Source: Halomicronema hongdechloris C2206
GTDB taxonomy: Bacteria > Cyanobacteriota > Cyanobacteriia > Phormidesmidales > Phormidesmidaceae
DNA: 32,000 nt
NCBI RefSeq assembly: GCF_002075285.3
Contig: NZ_CP021983.2
Location: 90,001 to 122,000, forward strand
Direction: 5' to 3'
Of the stretch, positions 13,532 through 29,327 are shown piece by piece. The notes under the pieces are model-generated. The model did no database searches and was not told the DNA's origin. It saw only the letters and a list, made by a program, of their open reading frames with translations. How positions within the stretch are numbered: position 1 is the first letter of the stretch; the number at the start of each line of letters is the position of its first letter. A program made the translations under genes and the position numbers.

Positions 13532-15376
13532 ATGGGTAACATGGGCACCGGTTGGACGCCAGATCAAATTGATTTCCAGGATTACACACTCCGTCACAAC
13601 AAGATCCATGCCCTGGTGAAGCAGATTCAGACTTTTCGCCGCTGTGTTGAACTGCTTGAATCCTTTGAAACGTTTCTCAATAAATTACCGGATGCCCAGA
13701 GTGCACCTGGATTCTTGGGGTGGTTGCTGGGCAATAGTCCCGGAGCCCTGGGTAAACAGGCATTGTTGGAAACCAGCACAGGGCTGCGGCAGGATCTGGA
13801 GATCATCCTGCAGGACATGGTCTCTGGCATTGATCTAATTGTGGCGGAGCCAGTTCTAGATAGCCCGAGTGATCTTGACCGCTTACGACCATTGCCGCCG
13901 CCCTTATCACTGGCGGTACTAGAGGCCTTACAGGATTGCGATATTGTGACGTCGTCAGACGGTGGACAGGGGTCTCGCGATTATCAGGATGCGGGGTTAC
14001 GGTCGATTCGCCACGTACTCGGTCACCTGACGCCCTTGGGACAGTATGGCCAATCGCAGCAGCTGAAATCAGCAATGGTCGACCTGGTGAAGCAGGGACA
14101 ACCGCAGGCTGCGGCTGAGTCCCCTCGACCGGAGAATGTGATCCGCATCAATCCCGACACCATGTATGACTTGCAGGTGAACCCTGCCAGCCGAGCGAGT
14201 CTGCGGCTGCCCCTGACCATGGCCCTGGTGGATGAGCTCAAAGGCCCCCAGGAGCAGTATTACGTGTTGCCCAGCATTGTCGATCTGAGCTATTGGTGTG
14301 GGGCGGTGAAACAGCAGGGAAGCCGCAATAGCTGCACCAGCCATGCGATCGCATCCTTGATCGAATACTTTCAGACCAAGAGCTTTGGCAAGGCCTCCAC
14401 TTCATCGGTGCGCTTTCTCTACAAGGTCACCCGCCGCCTGGGCGAGCTGAGTCAACCACAGCGGCAATACCTACAGGGACTGCTGCGGGATGGTGTCGCC
14501 GAAAAATCCGATGACCAGGCCTTTTCGGCGTTCATGGATACCATCACTGCCTTCAATACCGATGACCACACCCGGGTACAGGAGATTCAGAAGCGGGTGG
14601 CCGACGGGCAGGTTCAGGCCTTCGTCGACCATGCCTTTGACGGCGGCGCGTCCATTCGCCAGACCCTGAAGGCCATGCGACTATTCGGCCTGCCCCCGGG
14701 AAAATACTGGCCCTATACCGTTGAATTTCCCGATTTCGATGAAGAACCACCCCAATTTTGCTATGCCTTTGCCCAAAATTACCAGGCCGTGAAGTATTTT
14801 CGCCTGGACTACTTTGGCGACACGGCTCAGCCCTCGGGTTCAGGAGAGTATGGAGAGGCACCCGCCCCCGAGGCCTCTCCGCAATCGGTGGCAGGACGTG
14901 TCGTACTGACCCAGATCAAGGCGGTGCTGGCCGCCGGCTTTCCGGCAGTGTTTGGGTTCCCCTATGATGCCGCCAATGATCATCCCTATCCTGCCGCCGA
15001 TGGCAGCCAGGCCCCGATCAATTCCTCCAATGGCATGATTAAACTTCCCGAGGATCTCGACACCTTCAAGCGCACCCTGCGGGAAATGCGCCAGGGCAGT
15101 CAGGATGCCATGACCGTGTCCTCACAAACGGCTATTCGTGGCCACGCGGTGATGGCTGTGGGCTATGACGATGCTCGGGAAGCGTTTCTGATCCAAAATT
15201 CCTGGGGCACTGAATGGGGCAACCAGGGCTATGGCTGGCTGGCCTACGACTATGTGCTGCACGGACTGGCGACAGATTGGTGGTCGTTGCTCAATGCCGA
15301 ATGGGTGGAGGCGGGGCAGTTTGGCCTCGACGCGAAATTGGGCGGTACCCAGCAAGTTCCCAAAGCTTTTGGGTAA
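13532..15376 (+). CDS. cytoplasmic papain-like (C1A) cysteine peptidase with an uncharacterised ~245-aa N-terminal region
   Basis: VLPSIVDLSYWCGAVKQQGSRNSCTSHA gives the mature-end LP.S.D motif, oxyanion Gln262 and catalytic Cys268 (tgc 14333-14335). GGASIRQTLKAM...YWPY follows. RGHAVMAVGYDD carries His538 (cac 15143-15145), and IQNSWGTEWGNQGYGW carries Asn556 and the Trp. There is no N-terminal signal peptide. Confidence 0.8.
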   Translation: MGNMGTGWTPDQIDFQDYTLRHNKIHALVKQIQTFRRCVELLESFETFLNKLPDAQSAPGFLGWLLGNSPGALGKQALLETSTGLRQDLEIILQDMVSGIDLIVAEPVLDSPSDLDRLRPLPPPLSLAVLEALQDCDIVTSSDGGQGSRDYQDAGLRSIRHVLGHLTPLGQYGQSQQLKSAMVDLVKQGQPQAAAESPRPENVIRINPDTMYDLQVNPASRASLRLPLTMALVDELKGPQEQYYVLPSIVDLSYWCGAVKQQGSRNSCTSHAIASLIEYFQTKSFGKASTSSVRFLYKVTRRLGELSQPQRQYLQGLLRDGVAEKSDDQAFSAFMDTITAFNTDDHTRVQEIQKRVADGQVQAFVDHAFDGGASIRQTLKAMRLFGLPPGKYWPYTVEFPDFDEEPPQFCYAFAQNYQAVKYFRLDYFGDTAQPSGSGEYGEAPAPEASPQSVAGRVVLTQIKAVLAAGFPAVFGFPYDAANDHPYPAADGSQAPINSSNGMIKLPEDLDTFKRTLREMRQGSQDAMTVSSQTAIRGHAVMAVGYDDAREAFLIQNSWGTEWGNQGYGWLAYDYVLHGLATDWWSLLNAEWVEAGQFGLDAKLGGTQQVPKAFG

Positions 15377-15394
15377 TGATGTCGCCGACTGTCT

Positions 15395-18169
15395 ATGGTC
15401 CTGCTGCCCATGGCTAATGATGCCCTTAAGAGCCAATACCATGTCTTTATCTCCTATTCCCGTCGGAATAAGGCCTTCGTGAAGCAGCTGTTTGAGTATC
15501 TGCGACAATGCGATCGCACCGTTTGGGTCGACTGGGAAGACATTCCCCCCCTGTCCCAGTGGCGCGATGAAATTCGCCAGGGCATCTTGGCCGCCGATAA
15601 CTTCCTGTTCATTCTCAGTCCCGAATCGGCCAACTCGATGGAGTGTCATAAGGAAGTGGAATGGGCCCTGGCCTATCAGAAACGCCTGGTGCCTATCATT
15701 ATCCAACCCATCATAGACACCGACGTCCATCCGGCCCTGCGGGAGATCAACTGGATCTACTTTGACAATCCCGATCAGTTTGAGCAATCTGGGCAGACCC
15801 TGCTGCAGGCTCTCGACACCGATTTAGATTATGTGCGAGCCCATACCCGCCTGTTAACCAAAACCGATGAGTGGAGTCAGCATCAGCGGGATGACAGTCT
15901 GCTGCTACGAGGACAAGTGCTGGAAACCGCCGAGCGATGGCTGATTGAAACCCATAAGAAACCGTCCTTTACCCAGGCCCAGCGAGAATACGTGGCTACC
16001 AGTCGTCGGGCCGAAACCCGGCGGCAACGGCAACGGCAACGACTCCAAGTACTTGCCTTAGGGGGCATCACCATGGCCCTGGTGGTGGTCACTGGGGTGG
16101 GCTTGGTGGCGGAAAGTCGCCGCCGCCAGGCTGTCGTCCAGGGCATCGAGGCCCTGAGTGCTGCCTCGACCGCAAATTTTAGCCTGGGCAATCCTCTCAC
16201 GGCTCTGATGGCAGGATTGCAGGCCGGCCGACAATTGCAATCTGCCCCCTGGGCCGATCCTGAGCTGACCCCGAGGGTTCTGTCGACTCTGGCCGAATCG
16301 GTGTACTGGACTCACGAGCGCAATCACTTAATCGGTCACAGCAATTGGGTGTTTGGAGCCGATTTTAGTCCAGACGGCAACCAGTTAGTATCGGCCAGCC
16401 TCGATGGCAGCTTGAAGCTATGGCACACCAACGGAGAACTACTCAAGACCCTGGAAGGTCACGACGGCAAGGTCGTAGACGTTAGTATCAGCCCCGATGG
16501 CCAAGTCATCGCCTCAGCGGGAGAGGACGGCACGGTACGGCTGTGGCACCCTGACGGAGAACTTTTGAACACCCTGGAAGGCCATCAAGCCTGGGTGACT
16601 TCCGTACACTTTAGCCCCGATGGCCAACGGCTAGCCTCCGCCAGTCTCGATGGCAGCGTGTATCTCTGGCAACGGGATGGTACCTTGCTGCAGCAGTTGA
16701 CTGGTCATACCGGGCCGGTGTTGAGTGTGCACTTTAGTCCCGATGGGCGCTGGCTGGCCTCGGCTAGTGGCGATGGTACAGTGCGATTGTGGGGACGTGA
16801 TGGGGCAGCCTTACAGGTGTTACCAGGAGATAGCAGTAGCCTTTTCGAGGTGCGCTTTAGCCCCGACGGGCAGAGTTTAGCGGCAGCCAGTGAGCAGGGG
16901 AAGATTCTCCACTGGCAAGTGGACGGTACTTCCTTACCAACGATTGGTGACAGTAACCATAAACTCCTTGCCCTTGCCTACAGCCCTGATGGCCGCGTCA
17001 TCGGGGCTGGTAGTGATGATGGCCAGGTGCATCTATGGCGACTGAATGGCCAGCGACTGGCAAGCTTACCGGGACATCAAGGCTCAGTTCGTCATGTTGC
17101 CTTTAGTCCCGATGGTCAATTCATCGCCACCACCGGCGAAGACAATACCGTACGATTGTGGCAATGGCCCTCACCCTGGGTAACGCCTCGATTCGACTCC
17201 GATGTCGTCACTAGTGTGGCTGTGAACCCAACCACAGGACAGTTGGTGTCGGGTAGCGACGATGGCACTCTGAAACTCTGGTCCCCAGCAGGCACCGTGA
17301 CCGCAACCTTGCAGCGGTCTCTCGTGGTCATCAACGGCATGGCGGTGAGTCCGGGAGGGCAGTATCTTGCCGTGGCCGGGGAAGCGGAGGAGTCTGGACA
17401 GGGACTGGTGGAACTCTGGACAGCAGCTGGGCAGTTTGGCCGCCCCCTGGGCAGCCATGGCCAATGGGCCAATGGGGTTGCCTTCAGTCCCGATGGCCAC
17501 CAAATTGCTTCCGTTGGCGGGGATGGCCTGGTTAGGCTCTGGAGTGTGGCGGGGCAATCTCTGCAAGAGCTGGACCACGGCGGTAATCTCTTCGGCGTCG
17601 GCTTTAGTCCCGATGGTCAACGCTTGGCCTCAGCTGGAGAGCAGTCCTTAAAAATCTGGAATCTGGCCGCCGGCAGCGTGGAGCGATCCTTGACTACGGA
17701 GGCCAATCTCTACAGCCTTAGTTTCCATCCCCAGGGCCATACCCTGGCCATTGCCAGTGCCGACCATCGGGTGGGGTTATGGTCCCTGGAATCCGCAGCG
17801 CCCCGTTGGCTAGCGGGCCATACGGCCGAGGTCAATTTTGTCCAGTTCAGCCCCGACGGGACCCGCCTGGCCTCAGCCAGTCAAGACCAAACGGTGCGGC
17901 TCTGGAGTCAGCATGGAGATCCCATCGTGGCCCTGGCCGGCCATGATGAGGGGGTCAAAGCAGTCCGGTTTGATGCCGGGGGGACGACGTTGATCTCAGC
18001 CGGTGAGGACAACCGCATCCTGGTGTGGGATCTGAGTATTTTGCAAGTAGAGACCCTAGTGCAGTTGGGCTGTGCCTGGATCCAGGACTATTTGCAGACG
18101 AATCCGACTCTGACGGAGGCGGAGCAACAGCTCTGTGATGGGGTGACCAAGGATGCAAAGGCTGATTAG
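15395..18169 (+). CDS. TIR domain / single hydrophobic span / 14x WD40-repeat protein
   Basis: aa 16-130: HVFISYSRRNKAFVKQL ... VWVDWEDIPPLSQWRDEI ... FLFILSPESANSMECHKEVEWA is a TIR_2-type domain with the conserved Glu candidate E87 (gaa 15653-15655). aa 218-239: VLALGGITMALVVVTGVGLVA is flanked by Arg clusters. aa 311-882: 14 units of the GH..V..V.FSPDG..LAS.S.DGTVRLW type. The ATG lies 18 nt after the upstream stop; alternative ATG at 15410. Confidence 0.85.
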   Translation: MVLLPMANDALKSQYHVFISYSRRNKAFVKQLFEYLRQCDRTVWVDWEDIPPLSQWRDEIRQGILAADNFLFILSPESANSMECHKEVEWALAYQKRLVPIIIQPIIDTDVHPALREINWIYFDNPDQFEQSGQTLLQALDTDLDYVRAHTRLLTKTDEWSQHQRDDSLLLRGQVLETAERWLIETHKKPSFTQAQREYVATSRRAETRRQRQRQRLQVLALGGITMALVVVTGVGLVAESRRRQAVVQGIEALSAASTANFSLGNPLTALMAGLQAGRQLQSAPWADPELTPRVLSTLAESVYWTHERNHLIGHSNWVFGADFSPDGNQLVSASLDGSLKLWHTNGELLKTLEGHDGKVVDVSISPDGQVIASAGEDGTVRLWHPDGELLNTLEGHQAWVTSVHFSPDGQRLASASLDGSVYLWQRDGTLLQQLTGHTGPVLSVHFSPDGRWLASASGDGTVRLWGRDGAALQVLPGDSSSLFEVRFSPDGQSLAAASEQGKILHWQVDGTSLPTIGDSNHKLLALAYSPDGRVIGAGSDDGQVHLWRLNGQRLASLPGHQGSVRHVAFSPDGQFIATTGEDNTVRLWQWPSPWVTPRFDSDVVTSVAVNPTTGQLVSGSDDGTLKLWSPAGTVTATLQRSLVVINGMAVSPGGQYLAVAGEAEESGQGLVELWTAAGQFGRPLGSHGQWANGVAFSPDGHQIASVGGDGLVRLWSVAGQSLQELDHGGNLFGVGFSPDGQRLASAGEQSLKIWNLAAGSVERSLTTEANLYSLSFHPQGHTLAIASADHRVGLWSLESAAPRWLAGHTAEVNFVQFSPDGTRLASASQDQTVRLWSQHGDPIVALAGHDEGVKAVRFDAGGTTLISAGEDNRILVWDLSILQVETLVQLGCAWIQDYLQTNPTLTEAEQQLCDGVTKDAKAD
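16325..18040 (+). repeat. 14 tandem WD40-coding units (~123 nt each) inside the TIR gene
   Basis: The recurring motif tt(t/c)ag(c/t)cccga(t/c)gg (FSPDG) appears at roughly 123-nt spacing, for example near 16613, 16733, 16856, 17103, 17477, 17603 and 17847. The units are diverged at nucleotide level. Confidence 0.85.
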
Positions 18170-18549: not shown

Positions 18550-19314
18550 CTATTTTTTCTTTTTTTTCTTTTTCTTGCTGGATTTCTTGCTGAATTTCTT
18601 GGATGGAGAGGCTGCCTGGGTTCCCCCAGATCCAAATCCTTGTACTTGCGTCGGTGAAGATGGTTTAGGGGCCTTAAGAGAGCCCTGACCAAATTTGGCT
18701 GGTGTCTCCGAAGCAAGGGCGTCTAAATCTAGGGGCAACCCAGATTTTACGGCACTCACCTTGCCTTGGTTCGAGAGGTCATTCAACCATTCGCTGAAGG
18801 CCTCTAGCTGCGGCAAAGCCGCCCGCAACTCTCGGATGGATTCCGGCACGAAGTCATCCGGCTCGAAGTCTGATTCTGCTTTCAATCCCAGATCCACTTG
18901 CACCCTAGGCCAAGTCCCCGCACACATCTCGTCGATGTTGCCCTCGGCATAGACGGCGGCAATCAAATCAGCCGCCTCTACAACCTGAAACTTAACCAGC
19001 CCGTCCACCAGCCAACCATTGAGACCATCAGCATTATCGCGATAGGCCTTTAGCTGCTGCCATAGAATTTCTACACAGGTTGCCTGGGCATCGGGATACT
19101 GGTTACCGATGAGTTTAATGCCCTCGGCAATGGGAATCTTGCTCCACTCCGATAGGCCTTCGCGGGCTAAATAGGGCATCAGATCCGGTAACACCTCTGG
19201 TCCCATCAGAGCCAAGACCTCAGGGATTTCCTCACAGAAATAGTCATCATATTCATACTCTACTAGGAGCTTCAGGAGCGGCTGCAGGGCCTCTATCGCC
19301 CTAAGTTGTCCCAA
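18550..19314 (-). CDS. HEAT-repeat-like hypothetical protein with a C-terminal lysine-rich tail
   Basis: The 254-aa ORF starts at TTG. LGQLRAIEALQPLLKLL resembles a PBS-lyase/HEAT repeat. The C-terminus is KKFSKKSSKKKKKKKK. The first in-frame ATG is only at aa 37. Confidence 0.5.
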   Translation of the reverse strand: MGQLRAIEALQPLLKLLVEYEYDDYFCEEIPEVLALMGPEVLPDLMPYLAREGLSEWSKIPIAEGIKLIGNQYPDAQATCVEILWQQLKAYRDNADGLNGWLVDGLVKFQVVEAADLIAAVYAEGNIDEMCAGTWPRVQVDLGLKAESDFEPDDFVPESIRELRAALPQLEAFSEWLNDLSNQGKVSAVKSGLPLDLDALASETPAKFGQGSLKAPKPSSPTQVQGFGSGGTQAASPSKKFSKKSSKKKKKKKK

Positions 19315-26627: not shown

Positions 26628-29327
26628 CTAATTCAAGCTTTCCCCATGGCTAAGCTGATGAGAGGGGTGATGGCCGTTCTGGGGTGCTGAGAGATCACGA
26701 CTGGGGGGATTTTTTTGCCACAGAGGAATCTCTACGACGAATTGGCTACCCCGCCCCGGTTTAGAGCGGCAGCGCAGTCGGCCATGGTGTTGATTGACGA
26801 CGATCTGGTAAGTAATTGACATGCCTAAGCCAGTCCCTTTTCCCACGGGCTTGGTGGTGAAAAACGGATCGAGGATGCGCTGTTGAGTCTCTTCTGAAAT
26901 GCCGATGCCATTGTCAGAAATGGTAATTTCTACTCTGTTTGCATCTGGCAGTGCGGTTGCGATCGCAATGGTTGGTATCCACCGCGGCGACGGCTGGGCC
27001 TGCCATTTTTCCTCTAAGGCATCTATGGCATTGCTCAGTAGATTCATGAATACCTGATTTAGCTGGCTGACATAGCACTCTATGGCAGGTAAGGGCTCGT
27101 AGTGCCTTCGCACCAAGATGGCCGGGCGTTCTCCGTGGGCTTTGAGGCGACTGCCCAGAATCGTCAGAGTACTTTCAATGCTGTCGCGAATGTCGACCAA
27201 CTTCAGCTCGGTGCCACCCTGCCGCGAGAAGGTCCGCAGCGACTGGACGATATCGCGAATGCGCTCGGTGCCACCACGCACCGATTTCAGTAACTTGGGT
27301 AAATCTTCCAGGAGATACTCTAGCTCAATCTTCTGTTCAAGGTGCTGTACGGCTGGCGGGGCAGGGTCAATACTGTGCTGATAACTCTGCAGCAGCGTCA
27401 ACAGGTCATCAACATAGTGTTCAGCATGGATGAGATTGCCATAGATATAGTTGACCGGATTATTGATTTCATGGGCTAGACCCGACACTAACTGGCCTAA
27501 ACTCGACATTTTCTCGCTTTGCACCAGCTGTATCTGAGCGGTCTGTAGGTCTTGTAAGGCTTGCTCAAGCTGACGGGTTTTGCGGTCTTTTTCGGCCGCT
27601 TCTTGGATAGCTTCTTCGGCTTGTTTGCGGAGAGTAATATCTCGCAGGATCACCGTGTAGAGCGTCTCGTGGCGAGTTTGCATGGTGGCCACGGTGACCT
27701 CAACCGGAAATGAACTACCGCTGCGGCGACGACCGACGACTTCGTAGGGGTTGCCATCGGCACTGGCGGCAGCCAAAAACCGCGCCATTGTCTCTTGGCA
27801 GTCGGGGGCGGTCTCCTCTATGGACAGCAGCAAGGTCAGAGGTTGACCGCAGAGTTGTGCCTCTGCAATGCCAAATAGCTTCCGCACGGAAGGGTTGGCC
27901 GTTTGGACGGTGAGAGAATGGGGCGATACGGTCAAGATGGCCTCGATGGCCGATTGTACGATGGCCTCGGTATGGGCGACGGCTTCCTCCAGGGCAGCCA
28001 TGACGCGGTTATAGCGGGCGGCGATTTGGCCCACCGGAGTAAAGGGTTCTGCCGGGCTACGCAGGCTCAGATCGCCACTGCGTTCTTGGCGGCGCATGAC
28101 AGCGATCAGATCGACTAGGTCGCTGGTGGCTCCATGCTCAGCTACGTTGAGGCCGATATGCTCTTGCCGACGCCCCACCCGCAGAGGATACCAGCGATTC
28201 AGGGCCGTCAGTAATGGATAGGTGAGGCCAAAGGCCCAAAGGGCGGCGATGACGATGCCTAGGCATTGAATTTGCAGCTGCTCCAACCGAGTTAACCCGG
28301 TATTGAGCAGGGTCAGGTCGCCAAATAAAGCAACCGCTAGGGTGCCCCAAATACCGGCACTGAGATGGACTGGAATGGCGCCTACGACATCGTCGATGTG
28401 CCATCGCTGCAGTAGGCGTTCGGTGGCTAACATGAGGCCGCTGCCAAGGCTACCGATGAGTATGGCGTCGAAGGCGGTGACGGCATGACAGTTGGCGGTA
28501 ATGGCCACCAGGCCAGCCAGGGAACCATTCATCACCGCGGTGACGGCTATGCGTTGTCCCTGAAGTAATCCCAAGAGAATCGGGGTGACTAAGCCGGCGG
28601 CTGCGGCCAGGAGAGTATTGGCAATAATGCCCGGTACGGTGTCATCTAAGGCGAGGACACTGCCACCGTTGAAGCCAAACCAGCCCAGCCACAGTAGTAG
28701 AGTGCCTAGGGACGCCAGGGGTAAATCGTAGCCAAACAGTTGACGGTTGCCTCGCTTGCAGGAAAAACGACCGATGCGCGGCCCCAAAATCAGGACTGAG
28801 GCTAAGGCAACCCAGCCGCCGATACTGTGAACCACGGTGGAGCCGGCAAAATCAATGAAGCCTAAGTGTCCTAACCAGCCGGTAGTCGCGTTGCGCTCTA
28901 AACCTCCCCAGGCCCAATGGCCAAAGACGGGATATACAATCCCGGAAATCAAGATGGCGATGAGAACATAGCTGCTGAAGCGCATGCGTTCTGCTACGGC
29001 ACCGGAGACAATGGTGACGGCGGTGCTGCAGAACATGGCTTGAAACAGGAAGAAAACGCCCATCCAAACCTGGCCCTGGCCCACATCGGGAGCCCAGTGA
29101 CTGGTGCCGATCCAGCCGTCGTAGGAGCTGCCAAACATGAGGCCATAGCCAAAGCCCCAAAAACACAGCACCGATAATCCCAGATCGGCAATATTCTTGA
29201 TGACGACGTTGATATTGTGTTTGCTGCGGGTGGATCCGGCCTCTAGGCAGAGGAAACCAGCCTGCATCAGAAATACCAGGCTGGCGCAGACAATGACCCA
29301 GAGGATATCGATGAGGTCTTTAGTCAC
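26628..29327 (-). CDS. ammonium transporter (Amt) domain fused to PAS and histidine kinase (HisKA + HATPase_c)
   Basis: aa 1-400 are Amt: LMQAGFLCLEAG, FIDFAGSTVVHSIGG (D159, H167), GPRIGRF, FGFNGGS, AIPVHLSAGIWG (H321). aa ~455-565 are PAS-like. LAHEINNPVNY carries the candidate phospho-His619. DNGIGI and GKGTGLGMSI are the G1/G2 boxes. The start codon is GTG. Confidence 0.9.
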   Translation of the reverse strand: MTKDLIDILWVIVCASLVFLMQAGFLCLEAGSTRSKHNINVVIKNIADLGLSVLCFWGFGYGLMFGSSYDGWIGTSHWAPDVGQGQVWMGVFFLFQAMFCSTAVTIVSGAVAERMRFSSYVLIAILISGIVYPVFGHWAWGGLERNATTGWLGHLGFIDFAGSTVVHSIGGWVALASVLILGPRIGRFSCKRGNRQLFGYDLPLASLGTLLLWLGWFGFNGGSVLALDDTVPGIIANTLLAAAAGLVTPILLGLLQGQRIAVTAVMNGSLAGLVAITANCHAVTAFDAILIGSLGSGLMLATERLLQRWHIDDVVGAIPVHLSAGIWGTLAVALFGDLTLLNTGLTRLEQLQIQCLGIVIAALWAFGLTYPLLTALNRWYPLRVGRRQEHIGLNVAEHGATSDLVDLIAVMRRQERSGDLSLRSPAEPFTPVGQIAARYNRVMAALEEAVAHTEAIVQSAIEAILTVSPHSLTVQTANPSVRKLFGIAEAQLCGQPLTLLLSIEETAPDCQETMARFLAAASADGNPYEVVGRRRSGSSFPVEVTVATMQTRHETLYTVILRDITLRKQAEEAIQEAAEKDRKTRQLEQALQDLQTAQIQLVQSEKMSSLGQLVSGLAHEINNPVNYIYGNLIHAEHYVDDLLTLLQSYQHSIDPAPPAVQHLEQKIELEYLLEDLPKLLKSVRGGTERIRDIVQSLRTFSRQGGTELKLVDIRDSIESTLTILGSRLKAHGERPAILVRRHYEPLPAIECYVSQLNQVFMNLLSNAIDALEEKWQAQPSPRWIPTIAIATALPDANRVEITISDNGIGISEETQQRILDPFFTTKPVGKGTGLGMSITYQIVVNQHHGRLRCRSKPGRGSQFVVEIPLWQKNPPSRDLSAPQNGHHPSHQLSHGESLN

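Follow-up and report, generated by a model that had tools for sequence, protein, structure and literature searches.

The NAD+-cleaving TIR proteins include ThsB from Thoeris, Cat1, TIR-SAVED, and SARM1. These are soluble cytoplasmic proteins, and for all four of them it is established that the TIR domains must assemble before NAD+ is cleaved. The TIR proteins known from bacterial defense have been described as sensors or effectors that act in the cytoplasm. In the Toll-like receptors (TLRs) and the interleukin-1 receptor (IL-1R), one membrane span lies between a non-cytoplasmic, repeat-built ligand domain and a cytoplasmic TIR domain. Cyanobacteria and fungi also encode effector-WD40 proteins, with or without an intervening STAND NTPase, such as Npun_R6612 ("WRAP") and the Apaf-1-like STAND proteins. 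Here we describe a gene that resembles each of these systems in part. It lies within a 32,000-nucleotide stretch of the genome of the cyanobacterium Halomicronema hongdechloris C2206 (NZ_CP021983.2, positions 90,001 to 122,000), which we will call the window. The protein has 924 amino acids, and its order is a TIR domain, a helical linker, one hydrophobic helix, a helical cap, 14 WD40 blades, and a C-terminal helix with a pair of cysteines. We will call it TIR-TM-WD40 (TM for transmembrane). Just upstream is the gene for a papain-like peptidase. We propose, with a probability of roughly 0.55, that TIR-TM-WD40 is a type II single-pass receptor (N-in/C-out) with its TIR domain in the cytoplasm and its propellers in the periplasm, or possibly in the thylakoid lumen, and that the two genes form a conflict, defense, or cell-death module.

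An initial annotation of this DNA, made from the sequence alone, had proposed a TIR domain, a conserved helical linker, a hydrophobic stretch with particular flanks, 14 WD40 units that form two 7-bladed propellers, and a C-terminal helix. All of these were recovered at the positions given there, and the hydrophobic stretch is exactly where it had been placed. A structural model was built with AlphaFold2 from an alignment of 22 orthologs (37-49% identity). It has a mean predicted local distance difference test (pLDDT) of 88 and a predicted template modeling score (pTM) of 0.70, and the TIR fold is modeled.

The TIR domain matches Pfam's TIR_2 across nearly the entire profile (positions 1-121 of 122; E = 6e-27; 95 bits, versus a cutoff of 28). 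Within the motif SMECHKEVEW, E87 (codon 15653-15655) is invariant in the 22 orthologs, and it aligns to the glutamate of the "HKE" motif of SARM1 and of the "WDE" motif of Cat1. We take E87 to be at the position of E642 of SARM1, the catalytic residue. Because E87 is invariant and aligns to the catalytic glutamate of SARM1, the TIR domain appears to be of the NADase-competent kind. The best sequence matches of the TIR domain in the PDB are Cat1 and SARM1. The matches to the TIR domains of TLR6 and TLR1 are weak (E = 2e-4 to 0.07). So are those to the models for ThsB, SAVED-TIR, retron-TIR, and ThcB4 from type III Thoeris, which are domain-level matches below the family cutoffs (15.3 bits for ThsB_TIR, versus 21.2; 25.6 bits for ThcB4, versus 220).

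TIR-TM-WD40 shares a TIR_2-type domain and a catalytic-type glutamate with the NADase TIR proteins, but unlike those soluble proteins, it carries a conserved helix that is predicted to span the membrane, as well as a 685-residue C-terminal propeller module. It also lacks their partners: there is no ThsA, SLOG, SIR2, Macro, CD-NTase, or CRISPR partner here. We rejected membership in Thoeris because the ThsB score is below the cutoff and because the neighbors are the C1 peptidase and a 254-amino-acid open reading frame (ORF), with no ThsA-like gene. We also rejected membership in the STAND or NLR-like systems (Avs, bNACHT, or Apaf-1-like), since no central P-loop STAND NTPase was found. More broadly, Pfam, NCBIfam, and PADLOC identified neither an NTPase or STAND domain nor any further enzymatic domain in the 924 residues.

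Residues 137-307 comprise the linker, the hydrophobic helix, and the cap. The linker (amino acids 137-216) did not match any family in Pfam, but it is modeled as helices at 144-162, 173-184, and 194-220. Within the motif LLRGQVLETAERW (amino acids 170-182, nucleotides 15902-15940), L171, G173, E180, and W182 are invariant in the 22 orthologs. Across those orthologs, column conservation is 0.68-0.69 for the juxtamembrane helices, 0.67 for the TIR domain, and 0.60-0.62 for the propellers.

The core of the hydrophobic helix is QVLALGGITMALVVVTGVGLVA (amino acids 218-239, nucleotides 16046-16111), which is preceded by RRAETRRQRQRQR and followed by ESRRRQ. On the Kyte-Doolittle (KD) scale, its 19-residue average is 2.27, which is the highest value in the protein, and there is no other strongly hydrophobic segment. 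Its summed insertion energy on the Hessa scale is about -0.2 kcal/mol. The hydrophobic moment is low (0.43), so the helix is not amphipathic. The initial annotation suggested checking if the helix is conserved in homologs, and we did this in two ways. A search with the N-terminal 319 residues found 174 relatives, and among the 120 of these that were listed, 105 have a 19-residue segment that averages at least 1.6 at around amino acids 200-230, just past a conserved (S/A)SR..E/A..RRQR motif. Most of the other 15 are short fragments that are missing this region. Among the best 120 full-length relatives, 117 have one helix with a KD average of at least 1.6 immediately ahead of the WD40 array. Another two have a weaker helix (KD of about 1.5) in the same place, for a total of about 119 out of 120. 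As background, these full-length relatives contain 124 peaks of at least 1.6 in 150,605 residues, or about one per protein. Given its conserved position, its conserved hydrophobicity, and its low hydrophobic moment, the helix seems to behave as a membrane anchor, unlike an amphipathic packing helix.

If the helix does span a membrane, then its orientation can be predicted. The 15-residue flank on the N-terminal side contains 7 lysines or arginines, versus 3 on the C-terminal side. The corresponding means across the 117 relatives are 4.75 and 2.67 (net charges of +2.9 and +0.8), and the N-terminal flank has the higher count in 84% of them. The more basic N-terminal flank favors N-in. Also, the N-terminus of TIR-TM-WD40 has no hydrophobic signal. 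When bacterial membrane proteins are inserted, a folded domain of about 216 residues at the N-terminus would be expected to stay on the cytoplasmic side if there is no signal peptide, so a spanning helix implies N-in. Furthermore, every type of domain that is found on the N-terminal side of this helix (TIR, AAA-like, nSTAND1, or NACHT) uses NAD+ or ATP, which are cytoplasmic substrates. We rejected a periplasmic TIR domain on the grounds that the protein lacks a signal peptide, that its N-terminal flank is more basic than its C-terminal flank, and that NAD+ is found in the cytoplasm.

The cysteines tell a similar story. Of the four cysteines in TIR-TM-WD40, two (C39 and C84) are in the TIR domain, and the other two (C893 and C914) are in the C-terminal tail. 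In other words, the 685 residues after the helix contain just two cysteines, and both are invariant in the 22 orthologs. Similarly, 95 of the 117 relatives have exactly two cysteines between the helix and the C-terminus, a stretch of roughly 690 residues. Across 145 WD40 proteins with a predicted transmembrane helix, cysteine makes up 0.34% of the residues after the helix versus 0.86% before it (Wilcoxon p = 2e-20), while in 83 WD40 proteins that lack an upstream transmembrane helix, the difference between the two parts was not significant. The relatives without WD40 repeats that we examined mostly have 0, 2, or 4 cysteines after the helix, although two fragmentary-looking sequences have three; one of these relatives has a clear FGE-sulfatase-type sequence after the helix. 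The WD40-less relatives with short ectodomains retain the terminal pair of cysteines. Depletion of cysteine combined with a single invariant pair is a classical signature of an oxidizing, extracytoplasmic compartment, and the pattern in this family fits it. There is also a precedent for this localization in annotation, as Slr1410 from Synechocystis is listed as a "periplasmic WD-repeat protein" (PMC3479031). Overall, we think it is likely that the helix is a true N-in/C-out span, with the TIR domain inside and the propellers outside.

That the WD40 array comprises two 7-bladed propellers is well supported. The array's match to the WD40 family in Pfam has E = 6e-123, and amino acids 308-880 also match many other propeller families. 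The sequence can be parsed into 14 units of 38-46 residues with the signature FSPDG...AS..D..V.LW, and AlphaFold2 models 56 strands within amino acids 308-879, or 14 four-stranded blades, with pLDDT above 85. Among the structures in the PDB, the closest to it is 2YMU (45% identity; Foldseek E = 3e-60; phmmer E = 3e-204), which is the 14-blade "WRAP" array of Npun_R6612 from Nostoc punctiforme. The blades of 2YMU are arranged as two 7-bladed propellers (bioRxiv 10.1101/723619). This arrangement, together with the 14 modeled blades, argues for two 7-bladed propellers in TIR-TM-WD40 as well. We found no tandem repeats in the DNA that would indicate a recent amplification of blades: the units have diverged, and those of the second propeller have diverged more than those of the first. 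Before the array, the cap is modeled as helices at 226-263, 267-282, and 291-305 (pLDDT of 85-95). After it, the C-terminal helix LVQLGCAWIQDYLQTNP (amino acids 888-904; modeled at 885-902) is part of the motif GC.W[LIV]..YL..NP...(D)R.LC. The strict form of this motif is found in 80 of the 117 relatives, and most of the listed misses are close variants. C893 and C914 are a candidate disulfide.

Much of TIR-TM-WD40 is a mobile cassette that is joined to various N-terminal heads. The shared unit is LLRG..L..A..W, a basic helix, the hydrophobic helix, the helical cap, the WD40 array, and the C-terminal helix with the cysteine pair. The head may be one TIR domain, as in the window (about 920 residues); a winged helix-turn-helix-like extension and one TIR domain; or three tandem TIR domains. 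The triple-TIR proteins have about 1350-1400 residues, each TIR domain is followed by its own LLRG..L..A..W segment, and the helix is at around amino acid 650. Examples include P0123 (L006:6001-10119), which has three matches to TIR_2, and P0192 (L005:6001-10065), and there are many other full-length matches. AAA-like ATPases and nSTAND1 or NACHT NTPases are also found as heads. In the AAA-like relatives, an LLRG-type motif follows the ATPase, and relatives with other heads have the equivalent of the "ALxxGxxL" cap region. Thus, the statement in the initial annotation that the protein lacks a STAND or NTPase module is correct for TIR-TM-WD40 itself, but it is not a family-wide trait. For instance, P0167, P0191, P0188, and P0230 have AAA-like, nSTAND1, or NACHT NTPases, followed by a hydrophobic helix (KD of 1.9-3.0) and then WD40 repeats. 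If the helix truly spans a membrane in these NTPases, then the sensor and the NTPase would be on opposite sides of it, contrary to the usual STAND model.

The cassette's C-terminal part varies as well. The TIR-linker-helix module can be followed by TPR-like, SH3_3, or FGE-sulfatase domains or by a short helical domain of about 120 residues. In P0024, P0036, and P0057, the roughly 120 residues after the helix are a helical cap and a terminal pair of cysteines in the pattern ...SC.[WYA]L...(~20 aa)...WPCP. Since these short forms lack the WD40 repeats but keep the cap and the cysteine pair, the WD40 array may be an insertion into a small helical domain with a cysteine pair. In a library search with the sequence after the helix, the best 150 matches were all long multidomain proteins. 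The database names of the relatives are merely "TIR domain-containing protein" or "WD40 repeat protein."

The effector-WD40 proteins, with or without STAND, are the relatives of the C-terminal part. TIR-TM-WD40 has the same type of 14-blade array as they do, and the cap, the cysteine-pair motif, and the preceding hydrophobic helix are shared with the AAA-like, nSTAND1, and NACHT relatives; unlike the effector-STAND-WD40 proteins, it has no NTPase switch between its effector and its sensor. In the literature that we searched, the WD40 arrays of such proteins are treated as intracellular sensors, and the helix is not discussed.

The initial annotation likened TIR-TM-WD40 to an animal TLR. This holds as an analogy of layout: if the predicted topology is correct, then a single span separates a repeat-built external domain from a cytoplasmic TIR domain, and ligand-induced approximation of the TIR domains would be the natural model for activation. 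But the ectodomain is a double WD40 propeller instead of leucine-rich repeats (LRRs) or immunoglobulin domains, and no match to LRRs was found. Also, the TIR domain is N-terminal in a type II protein without a signal peptide, while the TIR domain of a TLR is at the C-terminus of a type I protein. The TIR domain has a SARM1-like catalytic-type glutamate, whereas the TIR domains of TLRs are scaffolds that recruit adaptors, and instead of a MyD88-like adaptor, the partner here is a papain-like peptidase. Homology to TLRs is confined to the TIR fold, and because TIR-TM-WD40 has no LRRs and is not type I, we rejected membership in the TLR family. In its predicted topology, TIR-TM-WD40 also resembles bitopic receptors such as the PknB-type serine/threonine kinases and ToxR or CadC, which have an N-terminal cytoplasmic domain of about 200 residues or more, a signal-anchor helix, and an extracytoplasmic C-terminal sensor. 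However, its output domain is a TIR instead of a kinase or a helix-turn-helix, and there is no sequence relationship. Among cyanobacterial kinases, a transmembrane segment followed by SH3b, as well as WD repeats, have been described (PMC1262709).

The product of the upstream gene is 100% identical to XM38_000860 from H. hongdechloris. It matches Peptidase_C1 in Pfam (E = 3e-7; 31.2 bits, versus a cutoff of 20.7), and a profile search of the PDB finds xylellain (3OIS; E = 8e-23). The top matches from Foldseek are 3OIS, Lpg2622, and cathepsins. Q262, C268, H538, and N556 are invariant in 17 orthologs, so judging from its sequence, the partner is a papain-fold peptidase with an intact Gln/Cys/His/Asn catalytic set. 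It shares the papain fold and these four residues with xylellain and Lpg2622, and its catalytic domain is xylellain-like, but it differs from them in having an N-terminal helical extension of about 240 residues (with the motif GTGW.PD..D..DY), an insertion of about 70 residues in the catalytic domain, and the linkage to TIR-TM-WD40.

In the window and at four other loci (L001, L002, L004, and L007), the peptidase gene is directly upstream of a TIR-TM-WD40 gene and on the same strand. The peptidases from L001 and L002, which are the two that we aligned, are 44-47% identical to the one in the window. In Leptolyngbya sp. LCM1.Bin17 (L005), the order is reversed, as a 965-amino-acid relative with a PG_binding_1 domain is encoded directly downstream of a triple-TIR form of the gene. 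A scan of the contigs with the peptidase profile recovered only two loci, as it depends on exact patterns. Also, eight pairs of peptidase and TIR-WD40 identifiers have the same longest-contig size in both lists of matches; two of these pairs are L002 (P0243/P0179) and L001 (P0254/P0139), which were already counted, so the other six are candidates for additional loci. That the genes are linked in two orders, and with two architectures, is evidence that they function as a two-gene module in a single clade.

More distant relatives of the peptidase (P0259, P0269, P0282, others, and L005:10247-13144) have 800-1000 residues and PG_binding_1 domains, with no N-terminal signal peptide. All of them retain an N-terminal GTGWIPDYPD.RDY, which is similar to the LP..VDL.. 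segment at the start of the catalytic domain. Next to the pair in Adonisia turfae is a gene of the metallo-beta-lactamase fold with a weak match to Anti-Pycsar_Apyc1 in Pfam (L007:7998-9053, minus strand). A gene with this fold is also upstream in L005. The proximity of these genes may be coincidental.

The features of the locus are listed in Table 1. The gap between the stop codon of the peptidase gene and the start of the TIR-TM-WD40 gene is 18 nucleotides, and a scan for promoters and terminators, which was otherwise uninformative, found no terminator-like site in it. The 221-amino-acid antisense ORF most likely just reflects the coding sequence of the plus strand. The 254-amino-acid ORF has no match in Pfam, NCBIfam, PADLOC, or PHROGs, and it is not kept beside the orthologs of the TIR-TM-WD40 gene in the loci that we compared. 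The rest of the window is made up of housekeeping genes, among them those for DusA, an SLH-domain protein, a glycosyltransferase, a glucan phosphorylase, a Tab2-like protein, a CitMHS transporter, APS kinase, an FGGY kinase, and an ABC ATPase. The GC content is uniform along the window. Elsewhere in the window, an 899-amino-acid ORF (26628-29327, minus strand) has a complete Amt domain (amino acids 9-401) fused to PAS and HATPase_c domains; by its domain content, it is a "transceptor"-like fusion of a transporter and a sensor kinase.

Table 1. Features of the TIR-TM-WD40 locus (nucleotide positions within the window) and other loci with the same gene pair.
Feature	Nucleotides	Strand	Amino acids	Remarks
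TIR-TM-WD40 gene	15395..18169	+	924 aa	Single ORF, Halomicronema hongdechloris C2206
TIR domain	15443..15802	+	17-136	Pfam TIR_2 (PF13676)
Juxtamembrane helical linker	15803..16042	+	137-216	Includes LLRGQVLETAERW and basic stretch SRRAETRRQRQRQR
Predicted single transmembrane helix	16043..16111	+	217-239	LQVLALGGITMALVVVTGVGLVA
Helical segment and cap	16112..16315	+	240-307	Ahead of blade 1
WD40 blades 1-7	16316..17179	+	308-595	First 7-bladed propeller
WD40 blades 8-14	17180..18034	+	596-880	Second 7-bladed propeller
C-terminal Cys-pair helix	18035..18166	+		C893 codon 18071-18073; C914 codon 18134-18136
Papain-like C1 peptidase gene	13532..15376	+	614 aa	Immediately upstream of the TIR-TM-WD40 gene
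Antisense ORF	15122-15787	-	221 aa	Overlaps both the 3' end of the peptidase gene and the 5' end of the TIR-TM-WD40 gene
ORF	18550-19314	-	254 aa	Convergent with the TIR-TM-WD40 gene; lysine-rich tail KKSSKKKKKKKK
Locus L001				Leptolyngbyaceae SM2_5_2; peptidase upstream of TIR-TM-WD40
Locus L002				JGI metagenome; peptidase upstream of TIR-TM-WD40
Locus L004				Filamentous cyanobacterium CCP5; peptidase upstream of TIR-TM-WD40
Locus L007				Adonisia turfae; peptidase upstream of TIR-TM-WD40

If TIR-TM-WD40 is a transmembrane receptor, then its external propellers would bind a ligand, such as a component of a phage or of the envelope, or a peptide. The ligand would drive clustering or rearrangement of the receptor via the hydrophobic and juxtamembrane helices, so that the TIR domains meet in the cytoplasm. 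Assembly of the TIR domains would then lead to cleavage of NAD+, which might act by depletion or by producing a signal nucleotide. The peptidase would be in the same pathway, either downstream as a co-effector or upstream, where it would process or activate the receptor. TIR domains need to assemble to cleave NAD+, and a receptor is the simplest model. The conservation of the propellers, which is close to that of the TIR domain, would be easier to reconcile with a conserved ligand than with one that evolves rapidly. In filamentous cyanobacteria, the pair most likely serves as a conflict or defense module or as one for programmed cell death. We would group TIR-TM-WD40 with the "conflict" proteins of multicellular bacteria that combine TIR domains with repeat sensors (PMC7159879, PMC10907252), minus the NTPase and plus a membrane helix.

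The initial annotation also considered that the hydrophobic segment might be a buried or oligomerization helix. The entire protein would then be cytoplasmic, perhaps tethered peripherally to a membrane by the helix, and the ligand of the propellers would be an intracellular one, as is assumed for Apaf-1-like bacterial proteins. We view this as unlikely. The placement of the TIR domain in the cytoplasm and the WD40 array outside, which the initial annotation proposed first, is favored by the charges of the flanks, the pattern of cysteines, the conservation of the helix, and the nature of the heads. Conservation, charge, and cysteines all weaken the cytoplasmic alternative, but both flanks are basic, and the RRR on the C-terminal side still speaks for it. 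Also, the helix runs into long helices on either side (194-263 in the AlphaFold2 model), so it could be part of a coiled-coil stalk. However, the helix itself is not modeled with confidence (pLDDT is below 50 at amino acids 218-228, where the model has a break), and it is uniformly apolar (KD of 2.1-3.0), with a low moment and a conserved position and hydrophobicity. Homologous WD40 arrays are found behind STAND NTPases, whose usual regulation requires the sensor and the NTPase to be in one compartment, as in the intracellular sensors of PMC13581612. But the STAND and AAA-like relatives bear the same helix, so they pose the question rather than answer it. And a cytoplasmic location leaves both the invariant lone pair of cysteines and the depletion of cysteine after the helix unexplained. 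If the helix does span a membrane, that membrane could be the thylakoid's, with the propellers facing the lumen: cyanobacteria send bitopic proteins to either membrane, the sequence does not distinguish them, and the evidence for N-in/C-out is equally applicable. This seems far-fetched, as there is no positive evidence for it, it is less easy to see what a TIR receptor would bind in the lumen, and the related Synechocystis protein is listed as periplasmic (PMC3479031).

The receptor could also be bitopic and have a role outside of immunity, such as in sensing the envelope, cell-cell contact, or filament integrity, or in development. The TIR domain would then be for signaling or scaffolding, and the peptidase would be regulatory, similar to the proteolysis of anti-sigma factors. 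The housekeeping context, without mobile elements or defense genes, would suit such a role. So would the propellers, which are about as conserved as the TIR domain instead of being hypervariable, as the sensor in an arms race might be, and which show no recent amplification of repeats in the DNA. Some of the related peptidases have PG_binding_1 domains, which also fits. Nevertheless, we doubt this explanation. The invariant catalytic-type glutamate indicates that the TIR domain is probably an enzyme that cleaves NAD+, and to our knowledge, NAD+ cleavage by bacterial TIR domains has so far been tied to defense or toxicity (Thoeris, CBASS-TIR, and Cat1). Also, the cassette is swapped among TIR, triple-TIR, and STAND heads, and a CHAT protease is encoded nearby at one locus; both are typical of conflict systems (PMC7159879). 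Returning to the transmembrane receptor and its proposed role in conflict, several observations weigh against it. The C-terminal flank opens with E-x-RRR, an unusual sequence for a flank in the periplasm, and WD40 arrays of the same type in STAND or Apaf-1-like proteins are modeled as intracellular sensors (PMC13581612). WD40 arrays are generally poor in cysteine, and both common descent and taxonomy are confounders in the cysteine statistics. The annotated genes of the window include no defense island, defense genes, or mobile elements; the matches of TIR-TM-WD40 in PADLOC are at the level of domains alone; and the peptidase has no match in PADLOC, NCBIfam, or PHROGs. By inspection, the N-terminus of the peptidase has no signal peptide, and a fold search with an AlphaFold2 model of the peptidase (pLDDT of 64) recognized the papain domain alone, with no sensor fold in the N-terminal region. 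Finally, the pairing is absent from the distant TIR-TM-WD40 genes of Coleofasciculus (L006), which has a TPR-CHAT gene nearby, and Leptolyngbya NIES-3755 (L008).

We did not find any description of the TIR-TM-WD40 topology or of the pairing of TIR with a C1 peptidase in the literature that we searched, but most subscription journals were not covered, so these may have been described previously. In addition, the conserved association with a papain-like peptidase represents a pairing of TIR with a protease, and the two genes would be a tractable system for studying outside-in signaling by TIR domains. If the receptor model is correct, then a TIR enzyme is connected across the membrane to a propeller sensor on the outside, and the outside-in logic of animal TLRs would exist in bacteria as well. 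More speculatively, the cassette might represent a class of bacterial transmembrane receptors of the innate-immune type, which signal from the outside in to interchangeable TIR, triple-TIR, or AAA/STAND heads. The TIR form with its protease could then be the first case of outside-in TIR signaling in bacteria and a functional analog of the TLRs. The topology of the helix also bears on how the large and much-cited prokaryotic relatives of NLRs and Apaf-1, including the "apoptosis-like" proteins of cyanobacteria, sense their ligands. If the helix spans the membrane, then many of the "Apaf-1-like" WD40 sensors of cyanobacteria would not be cytosolic.

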